64,000 bases of DNA. Origin: Cyanobacteria bacterium P01_D01_bin.156. Its GTDB lineage: Bacteria > Cyanobacteriota > Cyanobacteriia > Phormidesmidales > Phormidesmidaceae. The notes below the pieces were generated by a model. That model worked only from the letters and a program-made list of their open reading frames with translations. It was not told the origin of the DNA and did not search any database. Position 1 is the stretch's first letter. The number at the start of each line of letters is the position of its first letter. The position numbers and the translations under genes are program-made. The stretch is from assembly GCA_039024555.1 (NCBI GenBank), contig JBCCQQ010000016.1, forward strand, positions 1 to 64,000, read 5' to 3'. Of the stretch, positions 17,885 to 43,093 are shown one piece after another.

Positions 17885-17897
17885 GGGGGAAAAGAAA

Positions 17898-18037
17898 GGG
17901 GAATGGGGAATGGGGAATGGGCCTGTAGGGGCTGGCCTTGTGCCTGCCCTGATCGACTGGTTAGGCGATATATCGATCGAAAGAAATATTTGATGCGTAG
18001 GGAATGGGTCTGTAGGGGCAGGTTTCATGCCTGCCCT
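17898..18037. repeat. GGGGAAT STRR plus two REP-like GTAGGGGC...GCCTGCCCT direct copies
   Basis: (GGGGAAT)x3; 38-bp near-identical units at 17913-17950 and 18000-18037. Confidence 0.7.
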
Positions 18038-18040
18038 AAA

Positions 18041-19069: not shown

Positions 19070-19135
19070 GGAGTAGTGGGTGGGAATTCGGAATGGAGAA
19101 TTCGGAGTGCGGAAAGGGAAAGGGAAAGAACGCTT

Positions 19136-21310: not shown

Positions 21311-21328
21311 CTGATAAGTTAGCAACGG

Positions 21329-21745
21329 CTATGATGATGGTTCAGTGAGAAAAAATGGATAAACCAAACTACGACGATGGTGAGTTTCTCGAATGCGATA
21401 GTTAAGCATGAGATTGAGACTTGCGGTCTCCGGTACAGGTTTGGACGTTACCGATTCTACTAAAACGCGAGGCTCCCATTTTTGGATGGCTTCACGGGCA
21501 TAAATTTGGGCCAAAAGTAGCGTGTCATCATTGAGGGGAGCAAAGACCAACTCATGGAGCCGAGACCCAAAATCAGGGCGGTATACTCTCTCGCCTAGAC
21601 GCGTACTGAGGATAATACGGATAGATTCTTCTAGGTTGCGATCGCCTTCACTGAGCTGCACACCTCCCTGGAGGGTGAGCCGAAAGGGAAATCCCCAACC
21701 CTGACCTAAAATTTCTGGTGATGACAATTCTTGATGTAATTTCAT
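21329..21745 (-). CDS. gp25/GPW baseplate wedge protein (Afp9-like)
   Basis: LGQGWGFP, ILSTRLGERVYRPDFGS, WEPRV, LVYPFF. Confidence 0.93.
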   Translation of the reverse strand: MKLHQELSSPEILGQGWGFPFRLTLQGGVQLSEGDRNLEESIRIILSTRLGERVYRPDFGSRLHELVFAPLNDDTLLLAQIYAREAIQKWEPRVLVESVTSKPVPETASLNLMLNYRIRETHHRRSLVYPFFLTEPSS

Positions 21746-22120
21746 CTGCAAAAATTAATTACTAGCAAGCTTGATAGAATGAATTACTTTCAATTCAGCG
21801 AAAATATTTCTAATTTGTTATCAATAGAACTACGTAGATGGCTAAGTTTTTAAGTGAGATCCAAATAAGTGAATTAGCTTCTCGATCATCCTAAAGTCCA
21901 TCTAAATAAAGGATTTTGCTTCATTGACTGCTTGGATTTTATATGTGAGAGCAAATAAAAATCACCGACTTAGTATCAAAAAAAATTGTCATCTTTTTTT
22001 TGTTATGTTAACCGTCTACCGTATACAAAACTTCCGTATTATTAACGATTCACGAACGTAGGTAGCATGGGGTAAAAAGAGATTACATAGATAAATTCTA
22101 TTTGATTTGACTGTCTCAAT

Positions 22121-22212
22121 ACCGTTCTGATTTTTGAGGCTCAGACATTTTTTCTAGCTTGGAGGTGATCTTTCAACGGATAAATTTACCTGTCCCAACG
22201 ATCAGCAACGGT
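22121..22212. mobile_element. Degenerate copy of the GCCGTTGCTGA MITE family
   Basis: ACCGTT-CTGAT ... ATCAGCAACGGT ends, 92 bp, no clear TSD. Confidence 0.45.
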
Positions 22213-22242
22213 TTTCTATCTACTGCGTGAGTAACTAAAGAT

Positions 22243-22458
22243 ATGGCCAAAGAACAGGTTGTTAAGCTTTTTCGCGAAGCTCAGGCAAATTCCACACTGC
22301 GTGACACATTGAATACAGCCCCTAACCCAGAGGCATTTGTAGCAATGGCAAACAAAAGAGGATTTGTGTTTACTGTTAATGAATGGCGTGAAATGACAAA
22401 TTTCTCTGTGGAAGAACTAGAATGTGAGCTGTCTATTCCCAATGTTCCTGGGATTTAG
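22243..22458 (+). CDS. Nif11-like leader peptide family protein
   Basis: M.KEQV..LF......LR..L.......FV.MA..RGF.FT..E pattern, 71 aa. Confidence 0.8.
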   Translation: MAKEQVVKLFREAQANSTLRDTLNTAPNPEAFVAMANKRGFVFTVNEWREMTNFSVEELECELSIPNVPGI

Positions 22459-22529
22459 TAAGGCAAAAACTGAGCAATCGGTGGTAGACAACTAACACTC
22501 AGGCCCAAGCGGTCTAAACACTAAACTCT

Positions 22530-22583
22530 AAAATCTCTTATCAAGCCTATGCTTAGTCATAGGCTTGATAAGAGATTTTTTTT
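22530..22583 (+). terminator. Long perfect hairpin terminator between the nif11-like gene and the convergent CRISPR array
   Basis: 22-bp perfect stem AAAATCTCTTATCAAGCCTATG / CATAGGCTTGATAAGAGATTTT, 6-nt loop, T-run. Confidence 0.8.
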
Positions 22584-22696
22584 GGAGGTGACTTTTGATT
22601 TAAGCGTTTTTTGTGATGGTATTGCTTTGCTTGAGGAGTAATTAGAGCAGTTGATATTATCTTGATGGAATCGATTACTGGATTGCTGATTTTGTT

Positions 22697-22732
22697 GTGT
22701 TCAACGCCTTGTGGCATCAAAGGTTTGGATAG
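22697..22732 (-). CRISPR. Single orphan CRISPR repeat of a different family (type I-B/Cas8b3-like, 36 nt)
   Basis: Minus strand CTATCCAAACCTTTGATGCCACAAGGCGTTGAACAC with GATGCC/GGCGTT stem; resembles the recalled cyanobacterial I-B repeat family. Confidence 0.65.
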
Positions 22733-22737
22733 AGTGG

Positions 22738-25475
22738 CGGTTCACCCCCACGCTGGTGGGGACAACTGTTGTTTTTGTTGGGGGAGAAGGACTATGGAAG
22801 CGGTTCACCCCCACGCTGGTGGGGACAACGGATTTTTGTGGCGACCTAAAATGTTGCCAAATCCGGTTCACCCCCACGCTGGTGGGGACAACTCTCGGCA
22901 CCTAGGCGAACGAAAGTTGCTACATCCGGTTCACCCCCACGCTGGTGGGGACAACACTGTCACCTCTGCCGCGCCTTGTCCTTACTGGCGGTTCACCCCC
23001 ACGCTGGTGGGGACAACGGTTGGTTTCTCTCTAACTTGGAAGGGCAAACGCCGGTTCATCCCCACGCTGGTGGGGACAACTAACACTTGTTAGCAACTTC
23101 CCGGTACCATAAACCCGGTTCACCCCCACGCTGGTGGGGACAACGTAGGTCTGCCAATGCCGCCGACATAGGGTCTACCGGTTCACCCCCACGCTGGTGG
23201 GGACAACCTATGGGGTGCTCGCGTTCGAAGTAACGACCCTGCGGTTCACCCCCACGCTGGTGGGGACAACGGAGCTGGATGATAAATCCAGGCGGTAATT
23301 TCTATCGGTTCACCCCCACGCTGGTGGGGACAACGCGCATATAGTCTTTATTTTGGATTTTGAGAGTCGGTTCACCCCCACGCTGGTGGGGACAACGATT
23401 CGGTGTCAGTGGCTGGATTGTTGAGTGTACGGTTCACCCCCACGCTGGTGGGGACAACCATATTGGCTACTTACAAAATTATCAAGGTTTTACCGGTTCA
23501 CCCCCACGCTGGTGGGGACAACTATCATCCTGTTGATAGGAGTAGCGCCGGAATCCGGTTCACCCCCACGCTGGTGGGGACAACCTGCTTTTTCCTGACA
23601 CATCCTCGTCCACCGCTAGCGGTTCACCCCCACGCTGGTGGGGACAACATACTGTCTCGCAATTCTTCAACTGCCACCACATCGGTTCACCCCCACGCTG
23701 GTGGGGACAACTGTGCACCATGCTTCACGAACAAAGCGAGCGTCCAGCGGTTCACCCCCACGCTGGTGGGGACAACTAATTCCTCCGCCTATTCGGCCAA
23801 GAGACTCCCTACGGTTCACCCCCACGCTGGTGGGGACAACGCAACCGTTTTTTAGGACGCTCTCCAACCAAGCACGGTTCACCCCCACGCTGGTGGGGAC
23901 AACGGAGCTGCTTTGTTCTCCTTGCGGAATGATGGCAACGGTTCACCCCCACGCTGGTGGGGACAACAATCTGCCTGCACCATTTCGGCAAGGCCCTTAA
24001 TCGGTTCACCCCCACGCTGGTGGGGACAACTGATGCCCACGCTGGGGGTGCTGTCTGGTATCTCGGTTCACCCCCACGCTGGTGGGGACAACGTCTGACT
24101 TCTGAAATATTGTTGCATGATTACGGCGGTTCACCCCCACGCTGGTGGGGACAACGCGCGCACGTAAACTATGGCATTCTTAGCTTGCTCGGTTCACCCC
24201 CACGCTGGTGGGGACAACGAGCGTTGCCAATGGCGGGGGTGGGTGAGGTGGTGCGGTTCACCCCCACGCTGGTGGGGACAACAGCCGCTTCAGCCGAGAC
24301 CAGGACAGGGAAATAACGGTTCACCCCCACGCTGGTGGGGACAACCACCATGAAAGGTCTACATCAATACCTAAGCTTCGGTTCACCCCCACGCTGGTGG
24401 GGACAACCAGTTTGCCATAGATTAATCGCCTGTAAAAGTTCGGTTCACCCCCACGCTGGTGGGGACAACTGGAACGCGAGTTTTGTGGTCCATCCGAGGA
24501 TCTGGTTCACCCCCACGCTGGTGGGGACAACGATCAACCCCACCCTGGAGCTTGGCTAGCATGTCCGGTTCACCCCCACGCTGGTGGGGACAACGATAGT
24601 TAACAGGCCTATTTAGTTACTCAGGCGCTCGGTTCACCCCCACGCTGGTGGGTACAACCTCAGTGGGACATCAGTATCCACCAGACGATCAGCGGTTCAC
24701 CCCCACGCTGGTGGGGACAACGGAACTGCTAGGACCGTACACCCCGGCAAAAGGAGGCGGTTCACCCCCACGCTGGTGGGGACAACATAGTCTTCTTGCC
24801 GCCCTATGGTCACACTTCAAAGGTTCACCCCCACGCTGGTGGGGACAACGCTGAAAGAATTCGGAATAAAATAGACAGCTCTGCCGGTTCACCCCCACGC
24901 TGGTGGGGACAACGAAGAGCGGACTAGGCGACCGCCCGTAGACACACCGGTTCACCCCCACGCTGGTGGGGACAACGCGGCGATATCTCCTGAGATCGTA
25001 TCCTGTGGCACGGTTCACCCCCACGCTGGTGGGGACAACGCTGTATCTTGATCTTTTCCGGCTTTCTGAATTCGGTTCACCCCCACGCTGGTGGGGACAA
25101 CTGAGATGATCTCTCATGTAGTTTGCCAGCCTGTTCGGTTCACCCCCACGCTGGTGGGGACAACCCACACCGCCATCAAAATCAACTAAGTAATCATCGG
25201 TTCACCCCCACGCTGGTGGGGACAACCTTTTCGTTGATGCCATTCCACAGAGCCTGCATCGGTTCACCCCCACGCTGGTGGGGACAACGGTACTGCGCTC
25301 AAACAGGGCTCTATCGATGTTCCGGTTCACCCCCACGCTGGTGGGGACAACCCATTGGTTACTTACTCCCAGAGCTGCGAACAGCCGGTTCACCCCCACG
25401 CTGGTGGGGACAACGGGAACTGCACCAGCAGTATCAACAAGGGACTCGGTTCACCCCCACGCTGGTGGGGACAAC
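22738..25475 (-). CRISPR. Type I-E CRISPR array, 44 repeats / 43 spacers
   Basis: 29-nt repeat GTTGTCCCCACCAGCGTGGGGGTGAACCG (minus strand), counted by hand; spacers 32-36 nt; single-base variants in repeats starting at 23052, 24503, 24630 and 24821. Confidence 0.98.
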
Positions 25476-25494
25476 ACTTCCAAAATAGCCGAAA

Positions 25495-25767
25495 TCATTC
25501 AACTTTAACCAACAGCACCCCCTCTATGTCTACCAATGACCTCGACGGATTTCCAAGCATTCGAGCATCAAACCCCTGTTCATTCCGCTTTGGATAGATC
25601 ATCACGGCAGATCCCCGTCCGAGTTTCTGCTCAATCAACTGCCAAAGCTCATCCCGAACTAACGCCGAAACTTTGCCAGCAAACACACCCGCCTTAATCT
25701 CAAACAACCAACGACTCAGCTCCCCACGCAGGACAGGCTTCACATTTTCCAAAACCACAACGATCAT
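25495..25767 (-). CDS. cas2: Type I-E Cas2
   Basis: MIVVVLENV...LRGELSRWLFEIKAGVFAG..SALVRDELW..NEQG..VDIEGVLLV. Confidence 0.95.
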   Translation of the reverse strand: MIVVVLENVKPVLRGELSRWLFEIKAGVFAGKVSALVRDELWQLIEQKLGRGSAVMIYPKRNEQGFDARMLGNPSRSLVDIEGVLLVKVE

Positions 25768-26678
25768 CAGCCCTCCTTATCCGCCCAATTTTTACCCCCT
25801 TCCACCGACTCCAAAACATCGTCCCAAAGAAAGCAAATCGGCTCCGCTTCATCGTCATCCCCAAAGCCCAGCACCCGGTCAATATCCTTCACCAGACGTG
25901 CCATTAAACGATAATCGCTGAACCGCTCCCGGCATTTTTGCCGCACATGGCGATCCAGATCAAAATACGTTTCCGCCACCGACTCAAAAGCAGCCGGAAC
26001 CGTTGTTTCCGCCTTGTACATATCAGCAATGTCGTACACAAACGACAGCGGCTTACCCGTATGAATAAAGCCCAGTGCAGGCGAATACCCCACCGAATGC
26101 AACGCCGCCTGACACACCGCATACAAGCAAGTATTCGCAATGGATAGCGCCCGATTAATTGGATTTGCTGCATCCCAATTCTCAGTTTTATAGTTACGCC
26201 CGGTCCACTCGACATCCGTTTTTTTACTCCAGCGTTGATACAGGGTGCGTACTCGGACACCCTCTAGCCCACGAATCTGCTGTAGACTCAGATTCTCATC
26301 AGGCGTTTCATCAAATCTAAACTCATACATGCGTCGTACTACTGCCAACCTTTGAATAGAGTCGGCCCAGAGTGTTGCCTGATGGATTAACCTGCGAGCA
26401 TTGCCCGCACCACTACGACCATGGGCATAAAACCGCATCAGATCTTGACCCACCCACTGTACCTCGCAGGCGTTGTCGGCCAACGTTTTGATGGCAGCAT
26501 GGGTGATGGATGTGCCCGGACCCAGTAGCAAGGTGCCAATGGCAGCACAGGGTACAAAGAATTTACTTTTTTGCTTAAAAACCGCGATCGCACGTTCATC
26601 TTGTTCTATCCGACAATGTTCGAAATAGAGAAAACTAATGCGATCGCGGGCCTTGGGCAGCGTTCGTAATCTGGCCAT
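25767..26678 (-). CDS. cas1: Type I-E Cas1
   Basis: LLLGPGTSITHAA, GLEGVRVR, GYSPALGFIHTG, FVYDIADMYK. Confidence 0.97.
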   Translation of the reverse strand: MARLRTLPKARDRISFLYFEHCRIEQDERAIAVFKQKSKFFVPCAAIGTLLLGPGTSITHAAIKTLADNACEVQWVGQDLMRFYAHGRSGAGNARRLIHQATLWADSIQRLAVVRRMYEFRFDETPDENLSLQQIRGLEGVRVRTLYQRWSKKTDVEWTGRNYKTENWDAANPINRALSIANTCLYAVCQAALHSVGYSPALGFIHTGKPLSFVYDIADMYKAETTVPAAFESVAETYFDLDRHVRQKCRERFSDYRLMARLVKDIDRVLGFGDDDEAEPICFLWDDVLESVEGGKNWADKEG

Positions 26679-26699
26679 AGTGACGATATAAAAAGACGA

Positions 26700-27335
26700 T
26701 CAGGCGCGGTAGCGAGCCACCGATAAAAGACCGCAGCCATAGGACTTCCCTCGGCCCAATCCCTGACACAGTGCTTGGATAAATGCACCGCTGTCGGTGA
26801 CCTCTAAAATGCCTTGGTACAGGGCGGTGGTAATGCGAATGGGAGATTTACCCTTTTTGCGACCAAATACATTGGGTGATGGGATGATATCGGCACCATG
26901 GAGGCGGAAGCCGTTGCGATCGCTCTGGCGCTGTAGCCATGCCAGCTGATCCTGCTGTTTGAAATAGCCAACCGTTTTGCGGGTTTCCTTATCCCGTTTG
27001 CTGGGGTTAGCCCTGAGACGAAACTGTAATACCTTGCCAGGTTCAAAGTTGTTGGCATCGTAGGCAATCGATTTAGTATTCTCCTGTTGCAAATAGCCTT
27101 TAGGTAGCTTAGACCAGTTAGGTTCAACAGCAGACTGTACCAGTATCTTATTACTCTCCGATTCTTGTCGGAATAGAATATTCCATTCATGACGAGGGTT
27201 CCAAGCATCTGGAGTATGTTGTTCTGCCTCATCAGGAAATGCCTGCATAATCTGTCGATGTAGCTCATGGGCATTACCTAAATCTCGTCGCACTTTACGA
27301 GCATGGTCATTGAGAATTAACTGGGAGAGAAACAT
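26700..27335 (-). CDS. cas6e: Cas6e/Cse3/CasE
   Basis: HELHRQIM..FP, FRLRANP, GLGRGKSYGCGLLS glycine-rich loop. Confidence 0.95.
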   Translation of the reverse strand: MFLSQLILNDHARKVRRDLGNAHELHRQIMQAFPDEAEQHTPDAWNPRHEWNILFRQESESNKILVQSAVEPNWSKLPKGYLQQENTKSIAYDANNFEPGKVLQFRLRANPSKRDKETRKTVGYFKQQDQLAWLQRQSDRNGFRLHGADIIPSPNVFGRKKGKSPIRITTALYQGILEVTDSGAFIQALCQGLGRGKSYGCGLLSVARYRA

Positions 27336-27967
27336 TGATTTTTATCCAAAAAAGAAGACTCTACACAACGACTGCCAAAGAATCGCTTTTGCCAATCAAT
27401 CGGTACATCTTGCCTCACATCTAAACTGTTCGGCACTTCCACAACGCACCGCAGCTGTTGCGGTAGTTTGTTAATGGATGCCTGAGAACGCTGTAATTTA
27501 TGCTCTAGAGCCTCTATGAGGGGTAAATCATAGAGGCCAATTCTGACAGGACAGCTAGGAATAAAGCTTTTGCGCCCAAGGTAAAGTTGCCAAACGGGAG
27601 CCAGCAAGGCATTATCCAAAGAATCAAGTAATGCTTGATCTTGGCTTTCTAAGCCCACCAGATAATCACCATCGGCAACATAGTAACGATGGCTAATGAC
27701 GGTGCCCCCCTTGCCCCCGCCGGATTTAATCCCATCCATTACGGTGTGATAATCCTTTTGGACAACACCTTCTTGATTGATGCGGACTCCCATTTTGAGG
27801 GCAGATAGGTCCGCGACAGGTTCCCAGCGGGGTCGCCCCAACGCGGCACACAGTAACCCAATCACTGCTGATTTTGTCGGTTCGCGTCGGGTATCTCGAA
27901 TGGTAAATCGACTGTGATCGCCCCAGCTCATCATCGGTGATCGCATTCGCATGAGTAATGTGGGCAT
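27317..27967 (-). CDS. cas5e: Cas5e/CasD
   Basis: PMMSWG..R.T..EPTKSAVIGLLCAALG, DYHTV, LYLGRKS. Confidence 0.95.
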   Translation of the reverse strand: MPTLLMRMRSPMMSWGDHSRFTIRDTRREPTKSAVIGLLCAALGRPRWEPVADLSALKMGVRINQEGVVQKDYHTVMDGIKSGGGKGGTVISHRYYVADGDYLVGLESQDQALLDSLDNALLAPVWQLYLGRKSFIPSCPVRIGLYDLPLIEALEHKLQRSQASINKLPQQLRCVVEVPNSLDVRQDVPIDWQKRFFGSRCVESSFLDKNQCFSPS

Positions 27968-27969
27968 GG

Positions 27970-29130
27970 TTAGTTACCTCCAGGAAAGGCAGCTGCGATC
28001 GCATCTTTAAGCAGTTCTTGAACAGACGGTTTTTCGTAGTCTGCTAGATGCTTTAAATGCTCGGCCAGTTGCTCACGGGTAACGATGCCTTTAAATGCCA
28101 CTGAGTCATCCCCATACATTTTGCATAGGTCTGTCCAATGCTGATCTAAACGAGAAATTGCATTGCCCAATAAACTTTTGTTATTTCTTGGTGCAACCGG
28201 TTCTTCAAAGGCATCTACCAATGAAACAGGCTGTCCCTTACGTACTACAACCATGACCGCAGCGGGTAGGCTGTGGGCCGCAAACCCATTTTGATGACCG
28301 GTGGGAATGGCTTGAATAAAGGCGTCTGAAAAGGCTTTGGTGATGATGGCTCCTTGGTCATCACTACCTAGATTTTTTTCTAGTTGCTGGGTATCTACCA
28401 CCGTAAATCGATAGTATGTGGAGCTGTTATACCCGGTTTCTCCCAGGTGATCGGCCCCGGCGTCATCATTACCATCCAGGTCACTGGTGTCGCTCAGATC
28501 GTCAACCGCTGTAAAGAAGTCGAACTCTTGCTGTAGCTTGTTAACACTAATGGCATGGGCCATCTGTACTGAGGCATCTACGTTGACCGAAGGCAACGAC
28601 GCCATCATGCGACCAAAGAGGGCAACGTCGCCCGGCTTACCCGTAGTTGCTAAAGATTTTTCAATGACTTTGCCAATGTTGGGATCTTTCTTGGGTAGAG
28701 CCGGTGTTTTACCCGTTAAGCCAGGTGCGATCTCGTCCCAGTTTTTGATCAAAATATCGGCAATAGCTGCAATTTCAGTTTGTCCCAAAAACAAGATCGT
28801 TTTGGTTTTACCTGGTTTCTTTGGATCCTCATCTGCCCCTAAATGACTCAAGGCTAACTTAGCGGCAATTGCCGCTTGTTCTTCCTCAATATCTGCCGCC
28901 ATCAAAAGCGGCTTCAGTTGAGATAGCCAAGAACGAGACCGGTTGGCAAAATTATCAGGATTCAAGTCTGAATGCTGCTGATAGTGAAGTCTAACCGCCC
29001 GCTTTTGGCACTGGCTAGAAATTCTGGCCCGAGGACGTCCACCAAAGACCGTTGACTTAGGCATTCCGTTCTCATCTCGGTTCAGGTTAGCGGGGGGAAA
29101 GCTCTGTAGAACATGGATTTCAAATTGCAT
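27970..29130 (-). CDS. cas7e: Cas7/Cse4/CasC
   Basis: NLNRDENGMPK..FGG..RARISSQ..KR, DVALFGRM, DFFTAVDD. Confidence 0.96.
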   Translation of the reverse strand: MQFEIHVLQSFPPANLNRDENGMPKSTVFGGRPRARISSQCQKRAVRLHYQQHSDLNPDNFANRSRSWLSQLKPLLMAADIEEEQAAIAAKLALSHLGADEDPKKPGKTKTILFLGQTEIAAIADILIKNWDEIAPGLTGKTPALPKKDPNIGKVIEKSLATTGKPGDVALFGRMMASLPSVNVDASVQMAHAISVNKLQQEFDFFTAVDDLSDTSDLDGNDDAGADHLGETGYNSSTYYRFTVVDTQQLEKNLGSDDQGAIITKAFSDAFIQAIPTGHQNGFAAHSLPAAVMVVVRKGQPVSLVDAFEEPVAPRNNKSLLGNAISRLDQHWTDLCKMYGDDSVAFKGIVTREQLAEHLKHLADYEKPSVQELLKDAIAAAFPGGN

Positions 29131-29184
29131 GGTTTTTCTCCTAAAAACTTGAAGGGTTGATTAGCCGTGATAGTGGCAAAGCAC

Positions 29185-29748
29185 CTAAACGCCTGTTACG
29201 CCGTCTAAGTCTTCCTTGTTGTCATTAGCATGCGGTGCATTCCAAAATGCTCGTGCCCACTTATCTTGAATGTATTGATCTGGATGGTCCCAACGGCATA
29301 GATCTACCAACAGTTGTGGATAGTTGATGGAAAGCTTGTTAGATTTCATTAGTCGCACCATGGCGGTCAGGGGCGATCTCAAATCTTCTGATGCAGTATC
29401 TAACAAGGCACGAAATCGACGCTCGGGACCACCAGAACTGTCTTCGTTGATTAAGCGACGGGCACTGTGACCAAACGTGTTCTTATTTTCTGGATCGATA
29501 TCCTGGGGATAGTAAGCCAGTAAGCAGGTCACCAAAAGCCACTGCTCCAAGTTGTAGGCTTCTTCTGAGTCACTCAGGTATCGTAAGACCAAAGGATAAG
29601 TCGCCCGTCGATGTCGCGGATCACCCGTCAGTGCCCGTTTGAGATTTGCCTTTGCTCCATTGTCGTATTCAATAATGTTCTGGATTTGGTCCAAAACATC
29701 CGCTGCACGTTTAACGGCAGGTGAAATAGAAGGTGTTGTTGTCATCAT
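29185..29748 (-). CDS. cse2: Cas11/Cse2/CasB
   Basis: A.LKR, ERRFRALL, INYPQLLVDL..W, WARAF; position in operon. Confidence 0.9.
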   Translation of the reverse strand: MMTTTPSISPAVKRAADVLDQIQNIIEYDNGAKANLKRALTGDPRHRRATYPLVLRYLSDSEEAYNLEQWLLVTCLLAYYPQDIDPENKNTFGHSARRLINEDSSGGPERRFRALLDTASEDLRSPLTAMVRLMKSNKLSINYPQLLVDLCRWDHPDQYIQDKWARAFWNAPHANDNKEDLDGVTGV

Positions 29749-29778
29749 TGTGTTCAGTTAAATGTGCAGTTCAAAACA

Positions 29779-31332
29779 CTAGCTAGCCTTAGCCGTCTCG
29801 GTTTTCTTTTTAGAAGACTTCTTTTTGCCTTTTGGTTTAATATCTCCTCGCAGTTTGGCCAGGTGATAGTTCAGGGAACGTAACGCCGCTGCCCGTGCTT
29901 CATAGTTACGAATCGCAGCGATGGATTCGGTGAAGGCATCTGTTGCCACCTGTTGAATAGTTTTCGTCCACTCTGGCAATGTCCTGTTGCCGTAATAGGT
30001 AACGCCATCGGCCATCGTTTCATGGTCATTGGGTAGATCAAATAGCAACTTGGGAAACGCCTGGTCCAGGACAGCCCAATATCGAGATTCCCCATCAAGG
30101 GCGTTAGCTAATGCACCGGCATCGCCATTCTTGAGCACTTCTGCCAGTGCATGATAGGGACTGCCCTTAAATGAACGAAAAACATTTTGATGCTCTTCTA
30201 CCTCATTTAAAGCAGACACTAGGGCTTGCCATAGCCTTTTTTCTCTGAGATACAGCATGGGCGCAGAAAAGTGCTCACTACTCCATCCCAAGGGTTTAGC
30301 ATTATCCACCGATAGCCCCAGCACTTGAAGGCTTAGCCGGTCCTCTGCTAATTCCTCCTCCTGCAAATCAGCAACCCAGCTGATAATTCGAGGCCGCTCC
30401 CCAGCATCGGAAGATTGTAAGAACGCAGCAGAATCACGCCATAGGGAGCGGCTAAGATTGAGGCGAACGGTGAATTGCCCTTTCTTTGTTTTGTTATAAG
30501 CAACCCCACATTCCCACTGACTGGCATCCACATTTTTAGGAATGCGATCGCCACCATGGAAAGCGACATTAACCGCCCGATCTTGCTCAAAAAATAATCG
30601 CACCCGACGCCACTGATAGGTCAGATAGTCAATGTAGCCGTTGGGAATCCGCTCAAGCGCTACGGCAGGTTCCCGTTCCCAAGAAGGCAGGTCGTCTCCA
30701 TTTACAACACTGGGAATTTCCTTCTTGGGGTTGTACTGCATCAGATTGAGCAACAACGTTTCCTTAAGGCTCTGCCCCCGTACTAAAACATTGGCAGCGT
30801 CCATGGTGGGAATCACCCCTGCTGAAACAGATGAGCCGGTCTTTCTGCCGCCCACATCAAACCAGTGCAATCGCAACACTAGTCTGGCGGCTTCTGGAAT
30901 TGACAGTGAGGCACTACTCCACTGGTGGTCGTGACAAAACACCGTGCTGGTATTGTTGCCGTGTAAAACATGGGCCTGATAAATCTCAGCTGCTGCATCC
31001 TGGGTGATGGTGACATCTTGCATAAATGGCCGTTCTGGATGCAGCAGATCAAAGTAATCAGCATGATCTTTAAGATAGGCAATCGCCTTTTTGCCATCAT
31101 CCTGTTCAATCTCTTCCCAGTGATCGATATCTTTGGGGCCTTGGTAAGCTCGATGCAAAACGGTCAACAGGAAACGGTGAATTGTCAATGTGGTCGGCGG
31201 ATTGTCACCTTGGATTTCCTGGATTGTGTTCCAGTTTTCAAATAATTCAATTAATGAAACGTCTTGTAGTCGAAAATCTTGAGATACCACCGGTATCCAT
31301 TTTTCTACAGTTAGATTGAACGACACTAACAT
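29779..31332 (-). CDS. cse1: Cas8e/Cse1/CasA
   Basis: FNLTVEKWIPV, FDLLHPERPFMQ, G.SLKETLLLN; RBS GAGGAGG precedes ATG 31332. Confidence 0.93.
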   Translation of the reverse strand: MLVSFNLTVEKWIPVVSQDFRLQDVSLIELFENWNTIQEIQGDNPPTTLTIHRFLLTVLHRAYQGPKDIDHWEEIEQDDGKKAIAYLKDHADYFDLLHPERPFMQDVTITQDAAAEIYQAHVLHGNNTSTVFCHDHQWSSASLSIPEAARLVLRLHWFDVGGRKTGSSVSAGVIPTMDAANVLVRGQSLKETLLLNLMQYNPKKEIPSVVNGDDLPSWEREPAVALERIPNGYIDYLTYQWRRVRLFFEQDRAVNVAFHGGDRIPKNVDASQWECGVAYNKTKKGQFTVRLNLSRSLWRDSAAFLQSSDAGERPRIISWVADLQEEELAEDRLSLQVLGLSVDNAKPLGWSSEHFSAPMLYLREKRLWQALVSALNEVEEHQNVFRSFKGSPYHALAEVLKNGDAGALANALDGESRYWAVLDQAFPKLLFDLPNDHETMADGVTYYGNRTLPEWTKTIQQVATDAFTESIAAIRNYEARAAALRSLNYHLAKLRGDIKPKGKKKSSKKKTETAKAS

Positions 31333-31345
31333 CACCTCCTCAAAG

Positions 31346-34084
31346 TCAGTTATTCTTCTGAAAAACAACACCCTTCAGAGGATCTAAGCTGATCCTCCAC
31401 TTGCCCACATCGGCTCCATTCTCCATATCCAACTCCACATAGCGGCAATTTCTAAGCAAGGCCGATGTCCAACTGTTCGGTGGCTTAGTTTTTGATAATT
31501 CATTGACGATTGCTTTTTTTGAAATGCGGGTGCTGTTCGCCAGTAGCTCTCGAATTACCGGTAACGTAGGTCGAGTCTGCAAGTTAATGGATTGACAGTC
31601 TCCAGTGGGTAAACACAGCCCCTGGTCAGTCCGCTTCAAGAAAATAGTCGTAATGGAAGGCTCGCCTAACCGTGTTACTGCCGCAATAGTGGCTTCGTCA
31701 TCTTCATCACCCTGGCGCGTAAACTGGTCCGGGCTATTGTCGGCCCTAGGAGGCGGCAGCTTAACTCTATTAGCCTTTGCTCTGTAAGAATCCTCGGTGT
31801 CTGCTCGATAATCTGCTAACGACGTTTGCCAGTCTTCCTGGTACTGAGGCTCTAACTCTTCAGGAATATCCGCATCCAGGTGATAAACTGCCTCGATTAG
31901 GCTATCTGTTTCTTCTGGTAGCTGAACACTGGTGCGATTTCGCAATGTTAACCAGCTTCGCAACAACACATGACGATCATAGATGTAGCCACTTTCCTCA
32001 AAGTCTGCTTTAGCACCTGCCTTAATGGTTGGTTCTACAATCCATAATGCTGGCGATCGTAATCCCGCAGGTCTACGCTCCCGCATATGACGATGCAACC
32101 GACCCGAACGCTGGAGCAGTAAATCTATCGGAGCCAAATCGCTAATCATTAAGTCAAAGTCCACATCTAAACTTTGTTCAATTACCTGGGTGGCGACCAG
32201 GACATATTTTTCAGGCCGATCACCCTGCTTGCCAAATTTATCTAGGCAATCTTTTTCAATCCGTTCTCGATCAGAAAATAAAAATCGACCATGAAAAAGA
32301 CCCAGTTCTTGATGAGATTCAAAGTGAGGCTGCAAGCGATCATAGACCTCTTGTGCTCGACTAACCGTTGAACAAATGACAGTTGCACATCCGCCATTCT
32401 GAAGCTTGTCTTTAAGGGAAAGTACCCATTCCTTATCCGTCACCCAATGGACTGCTAATTCACGACATACATGGTCAGAGGCTGGGAATGACTTTGCTGT
32501 AACTGTGTCATTAGAAAAAGCCGTAATGCGTGGGTAGGGTGTCTGAGGCAACTCTGGAGCAACAAAATCATCCTCTTCACTGTGGGGGATACTTCCTTTG
32601 GCATAGGCTGTGAGCAGTCCCTGGCGTGTGCTTGTGGGTAATGTGGCCGACAATGCAATCACCGGAGACCCCAGTAATGCCAACCACTCCAGAAAACGCT
32701 CTAGTAAAGTACCTGTGTATAGATCGTAGGCATGAATCTCGTCTAAAATCACGGTTCGTCCGGCTAAACCAAATAGTCTGACAAATTGATGGCGAGATCG
32801 CACCACACCCATTAAGCCTTGATCCACAGTACCCACACCATAAGGGCTCAGCATGGATCGTTTTCGAGCCGTATGCCATTCACTAGCAACAACTTTTTCC
32901 TCCTTGTCATAGACCTGATCTAAACGACAGATAGTCTGCCGATACTCTTCCTTGAGTGCTGCTGCCGAATGACTCAGCGTTAAATTGATGACTTTTTGGT
33001 CATAGCGCTTACTTAGAAAATCCTGAACTCGCTGAAACATTGCATTGCTGGTGGCTTGTGTTGGCAAACCAATATAAAAACCTCCGGCTAATGTTTGATG
33101 TTGTAAATAATCAGCTAGATACAACGCGGCTTCTGTCTTGCCCTCTCCCATGGAGGCTTCTACCATCACTAAGCACGGTGGTTGGAGGGTCTGTGAGAGT
33201 GCGATCGCAACTTTTTGCAAATCCCGTGGATTATCAAACCCAAAAAGTTCTTTAAACGTCAGCGGATCACCATCCTGATGACAAGTCCATCCCTGTTTCT
33301 CAAGGGCATTTTTAGCCTTTTGCTTCAAATCTTGCTTATATTTATCAAATGATGTGTTATCTGCGTAGGGAAAGCCAGATTCTTTTTCAGGGTTGGACGC
33401 TAACCAATCAGACACAGTGGTTAATCCTGCCAACAGCATGGCCGCTGCATTATCACACTGATTGGGTAGGTCAGCAGCAGTTAATTCAACATAGTCTCTC
33501 AACTGCTGAAAAATAGTCAGACTATGCTGCTGCCAAATACTTCGCTCATCTGTTCCAGCCAGAGCACTATCTAATTTCTTGATATCCTCGCTGGAAGGAA
33601 AGAAACCATGATGACCTCCAACAATCGTGGCTAATTTTTTAGCTAGTCGTTGGGCATGACGTTTGGATAAATTATTGCCAACACCAACATCAACCAAAAA
33701 ATCTGGCAATGTCGCCGCTGTTACAAGCCCATGGGGAGTTTTATTTTTACGACGACTCCAGGGTAAAGAAGACCAACAGTCGTAGAGTGTTTCACCAGCT
33801 AAGATTTGCCCCACATCGCTGACCTGAAACTGAAAGGCAGGACTGACTTTACCCAAATCATGGCTACCGGCCATAAACCCACAAAACCGAATCATCGCGT
33901 CTTCATCGGTCAAGCCTAAGCCATCCAATAGCCGTTTCTTGGCCACTGGGCTTAGGTGAGAGCGAACAATTTCCATGGCCACCGCTGCTGTATCTGCTAA
34001 ATGACAAATCACCGGATGATATTTCGGCTGACCATTCTCAAAGTCTCCTTTACCCGTTTTCGCCCAAAACCGTGGCTGACTCAT
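31346..34084 (-). CDS. cas3: Cas3 HD nuclease-helicase
   Basis: WAK, CHLAD, HDLGK, MGEGKTEA, LDEIH, SAT, QRSGRLHRH. Confidence 0.97.
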   Translation of the reverse strand: MSQPRFWAKTGKGDFENGQPKYHPVICHLADTAAVAMEIVRSHLSPVAKKRLLDGLGLTDEDAMIRFCGFMAGSHDLGKVSPAFQFQVSDVGQILAGETLYDCWSSLPWSRRKNKTPHGLVTAATLPDFLVDVGVGNNLSKRHAQRLAKKLATIVGGHHGFFPSSEDIKKLDSALAGTDERSIWQQHSLTIFQQLRDYVELTAADLPNQCDNAAAMLLAGLTTVSDWLASNPEKESGFPYADNTSFDKYKQDLKQKAKNALEKQGWTCHQDGDPLTFKELFGFDNPRDLQKVAIALSQTLQPPCLVMVEASMGEGKTEAALYLADYLQHQTLAGGFYIGLPTQATSNAMFQRVQDFLSKRYDQKVINLTLSHSAAALKEEYRQTICRLDQVYDKEEKVVASEWHTARKRSMLSPYGVGTVDQGLMGVVRSRHQFVRLFGLAGRTVILDEIHAYDLYTGTLLERFLEWLALLGSPVIALSATLPTSTRQGLLTAYAKGSIPHSEEDDFVAPELPQTPYPRITAFSNDTVTAKSFPASDHVCRELAVHWVTDKEWVLSLKDKLQNGGCATVICSTVSRAQEVYDRLQPHFESHQELGLFHGRFLFSDRERIEKDCLDKFGKQGDRPEKYVLVATQVIEQSLDVDFDLMISDLAPIDLLLQRSGRLHRHMRERRPAGLRSPALWIVEPTIKAGAKADFEESGYIYDRHVLLRSWLTLRNRTSVQLPEETDSLIEAVYHLDADIPEELEPQYQEDWQTSLADYRADTEDSYRAKANRVKLPPPRADNSPDQFTRQGDEDDEATIAAVTRLGEPSITTIFLKRTDQGLCLPTGDCQSINLQTRPTLPVIRELLANSTRISKKAIVNELSKTKPPNSWTSALLRNCRYVELDMENGADVGKWRISLDPLKGVVFQKNN

Positions 34085-35052
34085 GGTGAATTCTCCTGTC
34101 CATAGTGCGCCTTCATCCCCTGTACCTCATCCCTCACCATTGCCACCAACTCCGATGGCTCTAGCACCTTTGCCCCCTGCCCATAAAACAACACCCAGCG
34201 TTTCACCTCATTCAACCCCCGTACCTCTAATCGCAATGTCAGCGAGCCATCTTCATGCTCTTCAATCCGCTGACTCGGATGCCAGCGTCGTTCGCGAATA
34301 TAAGGAGCCGTCGGCCCATCAAACCAAATTGCTACCTCTTTAGGGGTGCCCCCCACCTCATGCTGAAATGCCGACTCCACATCCCGTTTGCGATCAAAAG
34401 ACGGATGTACTTCAAATTTCTCGTCTAGTAACTTAATTTCCTGTATGCGATCAACGCGAAACCAGCGTTTATCGTTACGTTTATGACACCATCCAGTGAT
34501 GTACGGATTATTCCGAGAAAAATGCAGCAAATACGGATCTAGCCGCCGTTCCGAGACCGGCTTTCCCGGCGTCCCATACCGCATCCACACCTGTTGCCGT
34601 TGCCGACAGGCTTTTTCCAATATTTGCCACACCTCCGGGTCAAGATCCAACTCCGCTCCAGAGCGAAACATCACATGCTCATCCACTAGCTGATGCAAAT
34701 CTACCCAGCTTTGCTCAGGCAAACGTTTCACTAACTGCTCAATGGCAGACTGTAGCTCTTGACCATAGGCCGAACCCCCATAGGCCGCCAGCATTCGTGC
34801 CCCTAGCGTAAGCGCAAAAATCTCCCCACGGGTAAGCGCAACAGACGATAACCGCCACTCCGCATTAGTGTAGTACCAGCCCTGTGTGCGACTATATTCT
34901 ATAGGAGCATCAAACCTATCTCGCATATAAGCAAGATAGGTACGCACCGTCTTTTCATTACACTCTAGTGCTGCCGCTAATGAATCCGCCGTTTGGCGTT
35001 GGCGAGAACGCAGCAGCTCATCTAGCTGCAACAGCCGTTCCAAATCGAGCAT
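34081..35052 (-). CDS. wHTH-WYL-WCX transcriptional regulator
   Basis: N-terminal HTH (ERLLQLDELL..TADSLA), RRLDPY..YITGWC..R.FRVDRI, WVLFYG..AKVLEP. Confidence 0.93.
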   Translation of the reverse strand: MLDLERLLQLDELLRSRQRQTADSLAAALECNEKTVRTYLAYMRDRFDAPIEYSRTQGWYYTNAEWRLSSVALTRGEIFALTLGARMLAAYGGSAYGQELQSAIEQLVKRLPEQSWVDLHQLVDEHVMFRSGAELDLDPEVWQILEKACRQRQQVWMRYGTPGKPVSERRLDPYLLHFSRNNPYITGWCHKRNDKRWFRVDRIQEIKLLDEKFEVHPSFDRKRDVESAFQHEVGGTPKEVAIWFDGPTAPYIRERRWHPSQRIEEHEDGSLTLRLEVRGLNEVKRWVLFYGQGAKVLEPSELVAMVRDEVQGMKAHYGQENSP

Positions 35053-35156
35053 GTAAGATGTCCCCAAGTGTTGCAGACACCTTATATAATCAACCCGGTA
35101 AAATCATATCCGACTCATTCTTTAAAATAAAAAAATAGATTTGCTTTAGTATTTTT

Positions 35157-35248
35157 GGCGTTGCTGATCCTCGGGATGATTTTTTTCTGAAAGAGTCTGG
35201 CACAAGCGAGCGTCGTTAGATCGATCCATCCCATAAATCAGCAACGGC
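35157..35248 (-). mobile_element. 92-bp MITE with 8-bp TSD
   Basis: TIRs GGCGTTGCTGAT / ATCAGCAACGGC; GTATTTTT duplicated at 35149-35156 and 35249-35256. Confidence 0.85.
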
Positions 35249-35287
35249 GTATTTTTTACCCATGGCCTTGTACCAGAAACAAGGGTG

Positions 35288-37231
35288 TTAGGCCCACCCC
35301 TTCACTTCAGTATCAGTCAGAGGACGCTCTAGCTTCAAATATTCTCTTTTTGCTGCTTGTAACAGATGCTCCATTCTGACCGGTTCGTCCGCATTTGCTG
35401 CGATAAATGCTGCATTGAGGGCGATGTTGCGAATATTACCGCCCGCGATGCTAAGTTTTGCCAGACGTTCATAAACCAAATTTTCGGTGGGGGTATTTGT
35501 CGGAAAGATTTTGCGCCAAATTTTAGTACGCTGCTTAAAATCAGGAAACGGAAATTGAACAACAAACCGTAAACGCCGCAAAAAAGCCTGATCCATGGAG
35601 TTTTTTAAGTTGGTTGTTAAAATTGCTAACCCCCGATATGACTCCATACGCTGTAGCAAATAACTGACCTCCATATTGGCGTAGCGATCTTTAGAATCAC
35701 TGACATCGCTACGTTTACCGAAAAGAGCATCAGCTTCATCAAAGAGTAAAATGACTCCGCCTCCCTCAGCGGCATCAAAAATGCGACGCAGATTCTTTTC
35801 CGTTTCGCCAATGTATTTGCTGACTACCGCACTCAGATCCACCCGATATAAATCGAGATTAAGCTCCTCGGCAATGACTTCGGCTGCTGTTGTTTTACCG
35901 GTACCGCTAGCGCCTGAAAATAGTGCACTAATGCCTAGACCACGACCGCTGCTGTCGCCAAACCCCCAGGCTTCATAGACCCGTGCGCGCTGGGCTACAT
36001 GGGCAGAAATCTCCTGGAGGCTGTTATATTCTTTTTCTGGCAGTACTAGGGTATCCCAGGTAGCGCGAGTCTCGATACGTTGGGCTAGTTCATCTAGCCG
36101 AGGACGGGCCTGGGTACGACAAAGATTCCATAGGGGAGTCGGGCTATCGGTCTGACTCTGCAAACAGACGGTGTGGATAGCACTGGAACTCAGATTAAAT
36201 TGGGAAACTAGGGCGTTGATGGCAGGCTGCCATGTTTTAGCACGTTCGCCCAGGCCCTTGTGCCAAAGCTGTCGCTGTTCCTGAGGTGTGGGGAAATTGA
36301 CGTCTAGGGACACCAGGGTACGCTGGCGCTGACGGCGACGCTCCTGACTGGCAATGATCAGGGGAAGTTGGATAGTGTCAATAAATGTTGCAGCAGCATC
36401 CTGTCTCTCTGTGCTTTCCACCCCCAACTCTTCGCAATTTAACAACAGAGCCATACGACTCAGCCGATATTCTCGTTCACATAGCTGTTGCAAATTTTTT
36501 AGCTGTTGCCAATCGGTCGGTAATGCTTTTACCGAGAGTTCCTGTAGCTCCAGCCCCAAACGACTACAGGCGGCGGCAGCAATGATTCTTAGACTGTTAC
36601 CATCCATCCCAATCAACTGCACACCTGGTAAAACAGTGTTATGTCGGGTCCAGGTGTGCTCTATCGTTTCAACCAACCGGCCATGGGAAGGGACTAATTC
36701 TGAAGACGGTTGGACAGGGCACACCAACATTTGTAACCGCTGATCCAGGTACTGCACCCCTGTTAAATAGTGCAATACTCGCTCATCAATCCGTAAGGGG
36801 CTGGTTACCAAGGCATTTCCCCCACCCACTTCTAACAGTTTATGCCGTCTGAGGGCAGCGCTGGGGGTTAACGCTTCCCAGTTACTGTTTGAAAACAGAT
36901 TTAGAGCCAGCCCAAAGGTGGGATAGGCATGACTGCTAGCTGTCTGGCATAGTTGGGGCCAGCGACCATCCAGTTCCATTCCCGCACAGAGGAGCAGTAT
37001 ATTCTGTTCAAACTCTGTAAGCTCAAAACAACGAGCCAACAATTCTAGGGCAAATGGCTGGCCATGATAGTTGCTTTCTGGGCTGTTGGCGGTCGCTACC
37101 GCTGATTCAGGCTCCCCTCCCGTATGGGTCTCCAGGAGGCGATGTATCTGAGATATGGTGTGGCCTAAATGTTGTCGATTAGCGGTATGCCAATTGTTTA
37201 CAGAGAGGGTACGGGGAATGGCAGCAATCAT
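35288..37231 (-). CDS. CIS AAA+ ATPase (Afp15-like)
   Basis: GASGTGKT, VVSKYIGETEKNL, LLFDEADALFGKR, AFLRRL; N-terminal winged-helix region. Confidence 0.93.
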   Translation of the reverse strand: MIAAIPRTLSVNNWHTANRQHLGHTISQIHRLLETHTGGEPESAVATANSPESNYHGQPFALELLARCFELTEFEQNILLLCAGMELDGRWPQLCQTASSHAYPTFGLALNLFSNSNWEALTPSAALRRHKLLEVGGGNALVTSPLRIDERVLHYLTGVQYLDQRLQMLVCPVQPSSELVPSHGRLVETIEHTWTRHNTVLPGVQLIGMDGNSLRIIAAAACSRLGLELQELSVKALPTDWQQLKNLQQLCEREYRLSRMALLLNCEELGVESTERQDAAATFIDTIQLPLIIASQERRRQRQRTLVSLDVNFPTPQEQRQLWHKGLGERAKTWQPAINALVSQFNLSSSAIHTVCLQSQTDSPTPLWNLCRTQARPRLDELAQRIETRATWDTLVLPEKEYNSLQEISAHVAQRARVYEAWGFGDSSGRGLGISALFSGASGTGKTTAAEVIAEELNLDLYRVDLSAVVSKYIGETEKNLRRIFDAAEGGGVILLFDEADALFGKRSDVSDSKDRYANMEVSYLLQRMESYRGLAILTTNLKNSMDQAFLRRLRFVVQFPFPDFKQRTKIWRKIFPTNTPTENLVYERLAKLSIAGGNIRNIALNAAFIAANADEPVRMEHLLQAAKREYLKLERPLTDTEVKGWA

Positions 37232-37240
37232 AGTCGTTCG

Positions 37241-37501
37241 TTAACTACCCTGCAATAAATCCTGCAAATATTGAATGGCCGCTGTTGGCTCCAATAACAC
37301 AAACTCTCCATCCCGCAGTAGCTCATACTGACCACCGCGATAGCCATGGGCTGAAATTAGCTTTTTCTCCACTGCTTCGGTCGCTAAATTGTGGAGTTGG
37401 TTGACGCTGATGACTTCAAGTTCTAAGTTCATTTTCTGTTTTAGGGTTTCAAGATCGGGTTCGGACGGTTGGTCAGCATTGGATTCAGGTACGTCACTCA
37501 T
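37241..37501 (-). CDS. Hypothetical protein (86 aa) between DUF4255 and the ATPase
   Basis: ATG ORF tightly coupled to its neighbours (5 and 9 bp gaps). Confidence 0.7.
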   Translation of the reverse strand: MSDVPESNADQPSEPDLETLKQKMNLELEVISVNQLHNLATEAVEKKLISAHGYRGGQYELLRDGEFVLLEPTAAIQYLQDLLQGS

Positions 37502-37506
37502 AGTAC

Positions 37507-38745
37507 TTATTGAATAACAACTCTAGGGCTGTTAAACCAGTTATACGTAGGACTACTGGGCTCTGTATCCACACCTAACTGGCTATCAGCTCCATCCACC
37601 TGTAGACGAATTAAATATTCGCTCGGTTTCACGTTGTTAAATGGAATTGTCAGTTCAGTTCTGGAGTTCTGGTCTGGACGGGCTTCAAATAAATAGACAG
37701 CGGGGCTATCCACAGACCATTCATTCAGGGCAACAACAACGCGCTGACCACTGCCCACAGGCAGATGGGTAGAAACGTGCAAATTACCTGTGCGCGGATC
37801 GTCGTCAATGCCTTCAACATCAGACACATGCACAGCGGTCAAGGTGGGACACAGCATAAAGGGATAGGCATTAGAAGCGACGGGAATAGATGTTTGAGGA
37901 TTGGGATAATGTAATACCTGCAGAGGTTGTATCCCGGCCTGGAGGGTTGTTGCTCCACTAAGGGAAACAACAATTTCTGTATCATTAATAGACTGGGGCG
38001 TAATCTCAGCGATGCCGACTTTTATTTTGGTATGGTTGCCCTTGAGCTGTTGCCCCACGACTCGTAATGTGGTGTTGGCTTCAATGGGAGATCTGGGACC
38101 TGTTTGGGCCAGTACCTTATCGATGCGTGGCTGATGGGCAAAGGGCACAATTCGTGAGCGGGGTTCTCGAACGGGCAGTGCCTTCTGGGCCGACATTTCA
38201 CCATCTATAACCACGGCCATAACTTTATAGGCCATGGAGAGGGAATAGGGGGTTTGAAAAAAGGTAGACCAAATTTTTGACAGCTCATCCATATCCATGG
38301 AAACAGGATTAATGGTGATTTGCTGCGCATGGTGGGTGAGGTCAGAGTCCGCTAAGAATGTGGCATCCTCAATGGCGGTGTCAATCATGTCTGAGGTAAG
38401 TACCGTTTTGTCACTCAGAGTGCGCACCACGCTACCCAACAGTCGCTGGGGTTCTAGCTCAGTTTCGTTGCCGTAGGCGCTGAGCATATAGTACAAATCT
38501 AATGATGAATGACGCCGAATCGGTCCTTTTTTGGCGCGAAACGCGGCAGTGTCATGGTTGCGGAGGGCCTCGTTATAGCTGACCTGGTACAAAAACATGT
38601 TGATGCCAGATTCAGGGGTGCTGCTACCAATACTGTTGGGCTTTAGAGTGGTGACCCTGGCACCGTCCACATCCTGCTGAATCGCGCCCTGTAATAGCCG
38701 CTGGAGTGTAGCCGTAACGGTTGCGATCGCAAGATGATTACTCAT
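37507..38745 (-). CDS. DUF4255 / Afp16-like CIS tail terminator/cap
   Basis: MSNHLAIATVTATL, INMFLYQV..N..LRN, LDLYYMLSAY, QRLLG, ELSKIWS; C-terminal Ig/IPT-like extension. Confidence 0.88.
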   Translation of the reverse strand: MSNHLAIATVTATLQRLLQGAIQQDVDGARVTTLKPNSIGSSTPESGINMFLYQVSYNEALRNHDTAAFRAKKGPIRRHSSLDLYYMLSAYGNETELEPQRLLGSVVRTLSDKTVLTSDMIDTAIEDATFLADSDLTHHAQQITINPVSMDMDELSKIWSTFFQTPYSLSMAYKVMAVVIDGEMSAQKALPVREPRSRIVPFAHQPRIDKVLAQTGPRSPIEANTTLRVVGQQLKGNHTKIKVGIAEITPQSINDTEIVVSLSGATTLQAGIQPLQVLHYPNPQTSIPVASNAYPFMLCPTLTAVHVSDVEGIDDDPRTGNLHVSTHLPVGSGQRVVVALNEWSVDSPAVYLFEARPDQNSRTELTIPFNNVKPSEYLIRLQVDGADSQLGVDTEPSSPTYNWFNSPRVVIQ

Positions 38746-41777: not shown

Positions 41778-41885
41778 GGTTTAGCGGAGAATCTGAGAAT
41801 CTCCAAACACTCCCATTCCCTCCTTTGCTCTCCTTTTTAGGGGGGGATGAAACAAACGCCATTACTGCAAACGCCGTAAAACAAT

Positions 41886-41972
41886 GCCGTTGCTGATTTA
41901 GAGGATGAAACGATCTATAAAACTGATCAGTTGTCTAGATATGACAAATCCATCCCGAGGATCAGCAACGCC
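41886..41972 (+). mobile_element. 87-bp MITE-family copy upstream of the first tube gene
   Basis: GCCGTTGCTGATTTAGAGGATG ... CATCCCGAGGATCAGCAACGCC; A-rich degenerate TSD. Confidence 0.8.
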
Positions 41973-42007
41973 AAAAAAAATCAACAGAATGATAAGGAGG
42001 TAGACTC

Positions 42008-42505: not shown

Positions 42506-42527
42506 TGGACCTTTAGGTAAATCAGGA

Positions 42528-42578: not shown

Positions 42579-42605
42579 AATCAAGAAAATAGTTGAGAAC
42601 AGATC

Positions 42606-43088: not shown

Positions 43089-43093
43089 CGACT

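Follow-up and report, generated by a model that had tools for sequence, protein, structure and literature searches.

Does a complete CRISPR-Cas system lying inside the locus of a contractile injection system (CIS) work together with its neighbours, or does it merely occupy the site? The question is raised by contig C16 of the cyanobacterial assembly G000 (6.6 Mb in 149 contigs), whose positions 1-64000 are the window, that is, the whole 64,000-nucleotide stretch analysed here. The insert is very probably an ordinary mobile, WYL-headed type I-E cassette, a recent and self-regulated insertion at an accessory site that is not part of the CIS.

The cassette, encoded on the minus strand (35052 to 25495), has the order WYL-cas3-cse1-cse2-cas7e-cas5e-cas6e-cas1e-cas2e. 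It is headed by an HTH-WYL-WCX regulator (34081..35052; 323 aa from its ATG), the sole WYL-domain match in the assembly, with WYL and WCX domains above cut-off and an HTH match just under it. Next come cas3 (31346..34084), an open frame with the usual motifs encoding an HD nuclease fused to a helicase, the Cascade genes cse1, cse2, cas7e, cas5e and cas6e (26700..31371), and cas1e with cas2e (25495..26678). All eight cas genes are intact and score above type I-E NCBIfam or Pfam cut-offs. The array (22738..25475, also on the minus strand) starts 19 nt past the cas2 stop, about the same distance as in relatives, and consists of 44 repeats of 29 nt, of the hairpin type, separated by 43 unique spacers of 32-36 nt (mode 34). 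Its repeat is confined to this one array in the assembly searched. A full and intact cas set together with a 29-nt hairpin-repeat array with unique spacers identifies the system as type I-E. At the end of the array, on the same strand, lies a relic (22697..22744) made up of the first repeat of a type I-MYXAN (I-B) array (22697-22732) and the final 12 bases of the leader.

Genes of the CIS flank the cassette on both sides. The baseplate operon (11714..21751, minus strand) comprises, according to Pfam/NCBIfam, an unknown 850-aa protein, a WD40 protein, a CIS13-like protein (below cut-off), a TIGR02242 tail protein, baseplate J and gp25, in an order shared with relatives. Divergent from gp25, a small Nif11-domain protein (22243..22458, plus strand) forms the left border of the insert, and a perfect inverted repeat of 22 bp (22530..22579), accompanied by a T tract on the plus strand, is a likely terminator between this gene and the array trailer. 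The right border is the stop of the AAA ATPase gene, which shares the stretch 35288..38745 (minus strand) with the Pvc16/DUF4255 gene and an 86-aa gene. Divergent from these, a sheath-tube-spike operon (40065..55344, plus strand) encodes the sheath, four tube proteins, an unknown protein of 2353 aa, a CIS tube protein, a VgrG-like spike and a DUF4280/PAAR-like protein. Sheath, tube, baseplate J, gp25, spike, PAAR-like protein, AAA ATPase and Pvc16/DUF4255 are thus all encoded at this CIS locus, one of four in the assembly, which has a single cas1 gene. From the nif11-like stop to the ATPase stop the insert measures 12,829 bp. The first-pass annotation had described a WYL-cas block within a CIS locus, and Pfam/NCBIfam searches confirmed its gene order, strands and families. 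It had also taken the block to separate the ATPase genes from the gp25 operon; the position is right, but no operon is split, because the opposite-strand nif11 gene and the 22-bp hairpin stand between the array and gp25.

The history of the site was reconstructed from orthologous ATPase loci. The nearest named relatives of the ATPase are found in cyanobacteria such as Leptothoe, Adonisia and Leptolyngbya sp. PCC 7375, all of which are filamentous. Nineteen flanks with ATPases 67-92% identical to that of the window were compared: ten from the same genus (74-92% identity), seven from other genome contigs, after ten duplicates had been dropped, and two from metagenomes, chosen because they show both sides of the junction. 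None of the 19 contains cas genes or an array. In 15 of them the ATPase reaches nif11-gp25 across 132-1832 bp, while in the other four the flank runs into other genes. Five further loci viewed from the nif11 side, one of which is truncated where its contig stops, are also devoid of cas genes. The closest junction, L153 (nif11 92%, gp25 88% and ATPase 86% identical), has a gap of 496 bp without any ORF of at least 60 aa. Because the relatives carry no cas genes at this junction, the cassette is likely a recent insertion, and its arrival was probably horizontal, later than the divergence from the closest relative. In relatives the nif11-like gene converges on the ATPase, so that the site is a 3'-3' gap in which an insertion breaks no operon.

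Also, the junction appears to accept diverse cargo. Five of the 15 contiguous junctions hold unrelated genes, namely an HNH gene and its partner, a sulfotransferase, a glycosyltransferase, a CAAX protease and an unknown ORF. This fits the alternative that the first-pass annotation had itself offered, an insertion site, and not its first option of a coupled defence unit, which is not supported: on the genomic side the relatives show what that annotation had named as a refutation, their gp25-nif11 and ATPase genes being adjacent (15/19) or unlinked (4/19) without cas genes. Among 21 other genomes of the genus, the nif11 gene of the window is found in 12 and its WYL gene in two; both occur together only in G008, on separate contigs.

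Viewed from the cassette rather than from the CIS, the association is equally isolated. Cse1 is present in 25 of 301 genomes of the class, G000 included, and 16 related I-E loci were examined with wide flanks. A WYL match lies upstream of cas3 in 15 of the 16 (in one case only a fragment), and tblastn detected CIS genes in the flanks of none. The neighbours of the I-E loci, checked with Pfam in six genomes, are mutually unrelated. The nine genes recur, in unchanged order, on pREC1 of Acaryochloris marina MBIC10699 (NZ_AP026076.1), a plasmid typed as conjugative. Its cas proteins are 73-89% identical to those of the window, and the leader end just past cas2 and the promoter motif are likewise shared. 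In contrast, the pREC1 WYL protein is only 59% identical, whereas the window WYL shares 84-87% with same-genus WYLs, and the cassette of the window, unlike that of pREC1, lies inside a CIS locus and carries an I-MYXAN relic repeat.

Fifty genomes of the class sample have both Pvc16 and Cas3 among the matches listed, and in 11 of these a pair occurs on the same contig. A distance below 20 kb was found, among the matches listed, only in G000 and in none of the other 49, for which a crude chance expectation is 0.6. The test is a weak one, because assemblies are fragmented (39 of the 50 genomes lack a same-contig pair, many of them being fragmented) and 39 of the 189 Pvc16 matches fall outside those listed. 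In the nearest other cases, G037 (62 kb) and G273 (79 kb), the CIS genes lie at one end of the stretch examined and the cas genes at the other, with no matches in between.

Some observations speak against a foreign origin. The tetranucleotide profile of the cassette is host-typical (54th percentile), and neither composition nor HIP1 density distinguishes it from the host; since composition is host-typical, it gives no sign that the cassette is foreign. Nor is the insertion flagged by a transposase, an integrase or a duplicated target site. With regard to the spacers, none matches the assembly or the relatives' loci examined beyond 15-16 bases, as self-targeting would. Phage records yielded no protospacers, plasmids gave only repeat-level or short matches, and in viral contigs, searched with the repeat and 2 of the 43 spacers, there was no exact match.

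The region upstream of the WYL gene is consistent with autonomous control. Common to WYL upstream regions are an imperfect palindrome and, 10 nt past its right half, a TAnnnT hexamer. In the window this predicted promoter (35079..35115, minus strand) comprises the palindrome at 35115-35093 and the hexamer at 35084-35079, which ends 26 nt before the WYL ATG. The pattern occurs at 17 of 20 WYL loci, a count that is not independent because the pattern was drawn from the same loci, and at three of four plasmid loci. An independent matrix, built from 11 other sites with that of the window excluded (one of the 11 training sites was mis-picked), ranked 35115-35093 first among 13.2 million genome positions, with 22.8 bits. 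Six CIS intergenic regions scored 5.1 at most with this matrix, and the strict promoter pattern is absent from 20 CIS loci. The cassette thus appears, judging by these motifs, to bring its own predicted promoter. Cyanobacterial type I-E and I-MYXAN cassettes share a WYL family and a conserved predicted promoter with PafBC-type spacing. In a literature search outside which most subscription journals lay, no title or abstract addressed CRISPR-Cas within a CIS locus or the WYL promoter, so that earlier descriptions of the promoter motif may exist.

Two characterised regulators offer a model for the window WYL. PafBC is assigned the consensus tGTCgg(N10)tA(N3)T (PMC8635444), and the site bound by DriD is a pseudo-palindrome that keeps a constant spacing to the -10 (PMC13004042). 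As a comparison of motifs, the predicted site has the same 10-nt spacing to TAnnnT as that of PafBC and resembles that of DriD in being a pseudo-palindrome at fixed distance. The HTH-WYL-WCX layout of the protein is also that of DriD from Caulobacter and PafBC from Mycobacterium. However, the likeness is distant, with weak PDB matches to WYL-family structures, PafC included (E 6e-9 to 1e-8), and the predicted site of the window precedes a cas operon.

The palindrome is likely the target of a WYL dimer, which by analogy with DriD and PafBC would respond to ssDNA. In its ssDNA-bound form the dimer would likely switch on the series WYL-cas3-cascade-cas1-cas2-array from its own predicted promoter, and Cascade-Cas3 would then likely provide ordinary type I-E immunity. 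We lean slightly towards such an ssDNA-triggered activator, a repressor having not far short of an even chance. Sll7009 is a negative regulator of a type I-D system (PMC10212523, PMC4012209), and this one cyanobacterial CRISPR WYL with data counts against the activator reading. BrxR, which represses at inverted repeats (PMC9122601), points the same way. In Synechocystis 6803, matches of the window WYL lie on pSYSM and do not adjoin cas genes. If the WYL protein is an ssDNA-triggered activator, CRISPR expression would answer foreign or damaged DNA directly, with a sign opposite to that of Sll7009.

The predicted promoter shares the gap between ATPase and WYL genes with a repeated element, and the earlier account of this gap, as roughly 235 bp that are largely a MITE, is to be corrected on two points. 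The MITE-like element (35157..35248) has 92 bp, about 40% of the gap, and the conserved predicted WYL promoter, located downstream of it, had gone unmentioned. The element resembles a MITE in being short, in having terminal inverted repeats and in its many copies, with 86 paired copies genome-wide, 76 of them of 90-99 bp. It recurs in several CIS intergenic gaps, yet a CIS-specific RNA element was rejected as a reading, the copies being spread across the genome and its 8-base motif being found in none of 15 relatives' junctions. Rfam gave no match at gathering score within 11000-56000.

Could transcripts nevertheless pass from the CIS genes into the cassette? A chance insertion with incidental read-through, in which pvc16-ATPase transcripts extend into WYL-cas and cas expression partly tracks the CIS in this lineage only, is the best of the remaining readings, though an unlikely one. 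The cassette is on the strand of the ATPase, and the element folds as a hairpin without a strong U tract. The terminator-like signals 3' of the ATPase amount to one weak match against 0.6 expected, which is chance level. Read-through is possible because the strand is shared and the terminator-like signal is weak; the WYL gene's own conserved predicted promoter, downstream of the element, argues against it. Clearly improbable is the further step of a lineage-specific wiring, in which pvc16-ATPase transcripts running into WYL-cas would let one stress signal arm both immunity and CIS-mediated death of infected cells in a filament.

Even less probable is a defence unit under common WYL control, in which selection has acted jointly on CRISPR immunity and on killing or cell death brought about by the CIS. 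Some features of the locus do point in that direction: the cassette follows the ATPase on the same strand after 235 bp with no strong terminator, traces of two CRISPR types are present, and the CIS is nearest to PDB entries 8BKY, 8BL4 and 9GTP, which we take to be Streptomyces entries. The sheath finds its best, full-length match in 8BKY/8BL4 (E 2e-119) and the baseplate protein its sole PDB match in 9GTP (E 2.5e-109), results that bear out, given that origin of the entries, the likeness to Streptomyces CISs originally proposed. The CIS of the window differs from the Streptomyces-type cytoplasmic CIS in its cyanobacterial host. The CISs of Streptomyces and Anabaena have been tied to cell death (PMC10020575, PMC8894136), and the word CRISPR is absent from the main texts of these two and of PMC12210884. 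With the thylakoid-anchored CIS of Anabaena (PMC8894136), the system of the window shares a cyanobacterial origin and the same core parts, but the two sheaths match only in the C-terminal third (E 2e-50). The features of the thylakoid-anchored type (a Cis13 membrane segment, an extended Cis12 and a Cis19 crown) were not recovered. Matches to the CIS12 and CIS13 models fall far below cut-off, the CIS13-like protein scoring 43 bits against a cut-off of 370 and having no PDB match and no clear membrane helix (top hydropathy 1.46). For the 850-aa protein of the baseplate operon there was no PDB match either.

Against common control and co-selection stands the comparative record. The link is repeated in 0/19 orthologous flanks, 0/16 related I-E loci and, within 20 kb and among the matches listed, 0/49 other genomes of the class, and of the 12 other genomes of the genus with the nif11 gene of the window, 11 lack the WYL gene. 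Sites resembling the WYL operator occur in none of the six CIS intergenic regions nor, by the strict pattern, in the 20 CIS loci, and the nif11 gene and hairpin lie between array and gp25. As a CIS-CRISPR system the locus has little significance, the link being found in one genome and absent from its relatives.

The continuity of the sequence was checked against contigs of run X1, labelled marine metagenome, which are not an independent source because X1 is possibly the origin of the assembly. X1 contains the stretch, and among the runs listed as doing so none is an RNA run. On these contigs nif11 runs on into the first I-E repeat, the left half of the element is attached to cas2-WYL, and its right half is attached to the ATPase. 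None of the contigs listed spans the 39 bases at the centre of the element (35180-35218), and the ATPase-WYL join therefore rests on the assembly and on the ancestral gp25-nif11-ATPase order. That this join is an assembly error caused by the repeated element is hardly credible: the unbridged bases, the letter at 35205 that no listed X1 contig shows and the 86 copies of the element would allow it, but depth is similar on both sides (19-21), the join preserves the ancestral gene order, and on the other side nif11, relic and I-E repeat lie together on one 508-nt contig, this repeat belonging to a single array.

With the ordinary, self-regulated cassette as the preferred reading, the relic repeat suggests how the cassette was put together. 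The repeat had been attributed to another CRISPR type, and it is indeed real, representing the first repeat and leader end of a type I-MYXAN (I-B) array. A 31-base part of it matches, with at most three mismatches, in 3 of 300 other genomes, each time inside a repeat array. The relic differs in 3 of 36 letters from the array repeat of G008 (L265), and in 6 of 36 from the array that follows the I-MYXAN cas2 of Synechocystis PCC 6714 (pSYLB). The 12 bases preceding it match the leader end of G008 at 10 of 12 positions, compared with at most five in internal controls and 0-6 in five other I-MYXAN-type arrays, of which one is truncated where its contig stops. The 12 bases coincide in part with the end of the last repeat of the I-E array, and the sequence beyond the relic is unlike the G008 trailer. 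A second CRISPR-Cas system to which the relic might belong was rejected on account of the lack of any DevR or RAMP match and the single cas1 gene in the assembly, in which neither a Cas7b match nor a second copy of the relic repeat was found.

The array of G008 follows a full I-MYXAN operon whose head WYL is 84-85% identical to that of the window, and the I-MYXAN cassettes of G008 (L265) and PCC 6714 (pSYLB) resemble the window in both WYL family and promoter. In the WYL tree the window groups at 100/100 with G008 and with G020, a type I-E genome with distant interference genes: these are 27-39% identical to those of the window, compared with 95% for cas1 and 98% for cas2. Since the relic is close to the G008 repeat and the WYL of G008 is 84-85% identical, an exchange of cas genes behind a kept regulator is indicated, which, we infer, left one I-MYXAN repeat in place. 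The WYL gene and the relic repeat likely derive from a WYL-I-MYXAN cassette resident in the genus, in which an I-E block would have replaced the I-MYXAN cas genes and most of the leader. The joint likely lies in a 7-base near-match between the end of the I-E repeat and the end of the I-MYXAN leader. The earlier suggestion that the site had hosted another CRISPR type is therefore upheld as far as its presence goes, by leader end and first repeat, although the swap may predate the cassette's arrival. Across three genomes of one genus, three different sets of cas genes stand behind near-identical WYLs, and the window probably retains the scar of such a swap. Elsewhere in the assembly, orphan arrays of other repeat types are located on contigs C46, C48 and C120.

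The predicted promoter of the HTH-WYL-WCX regulator gene that heads the cas block (window 35079-35115) consists of a palindrome-N10-TAnnnT motif that is conserved ahead of cyanobacterial WYL genes, being found also among the fetched loci L046-L063, L077, L081, L241-L245 and L265. The cas genes behind the motif-bearing regulators are of type I-E, type I-MYXAN and, at one locus, another type I. The spacing of the motif resembles that of PafBC, the WYL activator of Mycobacterium. Two relatives of the same genus, G020 (L062) and G008 (L265), carry WYL proteins 84-87% identical to that of the window, and the cas payloads behind them differ. In G020 the interference block is rearranged and distant from that of the window, and a leftover cas6 fragment precedes a cas1 that is 95% identical to the window's.

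On a contig of the marine metagenome run X1 that joins position 22734 to 22697, the relic-type repeat occurs twice, flanking a 32-letter spacer, and therefore an intact array of this type is present in the sample. Elsewhere in the G000 assembly, contigs C46, C48 and C120 bear short CRISPR-like arrays of two further repeat types, for which no matching cas1 or RAMP gene was found in the assembly.

Within the contractile injection system, the Nif11-domain gene (window 22243-22458) keeps its divergent orientation to gp25 in all relatives showing both genes, the sequence upstream of it is conserved, and it may be a genuine accessory of this subtype. The GC-rich (54%) baseplate operon (window 11714-21751) has a more unusual tetranucleotide profile than any other 9.5-kb stretch tested (100th percentile of 625), in contrast to the cas block. 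In the tube operon, a 2353-aa ORF (window 45114-52175) without match in Pfam or NCBIfam has strong strand skew and resembles relatives at its ends only; it is possibly a tape-measure or cargo protein.

The MITE-like element recurs, as a copy or half copy, in other intergenic gaps of the injection system (39632-39722, 41886-41972, 42528-42580 and 22193-22210). An lrgA-lrgB pair (cidAB-like holin/antiholin; window 8307-9387) lies about 2.3 kb past the end of the baseplate operon, adjoining an isiA/pcb-like gene. Among relatives, the G009 locus (L005:12989-14481), in which baseplate J is truncated at about residue 450 and adjoins a partial PAAR-like gene, looks rearranged or broken. In G005 (L007:4554-13930), a diversity-generating-retroelement-like cluster containing a reverse transcriptase, Avd, three FGE-sulfatase genes, a MoxR-like AAA and a vWA gene directly follows the orthologous ATPase.
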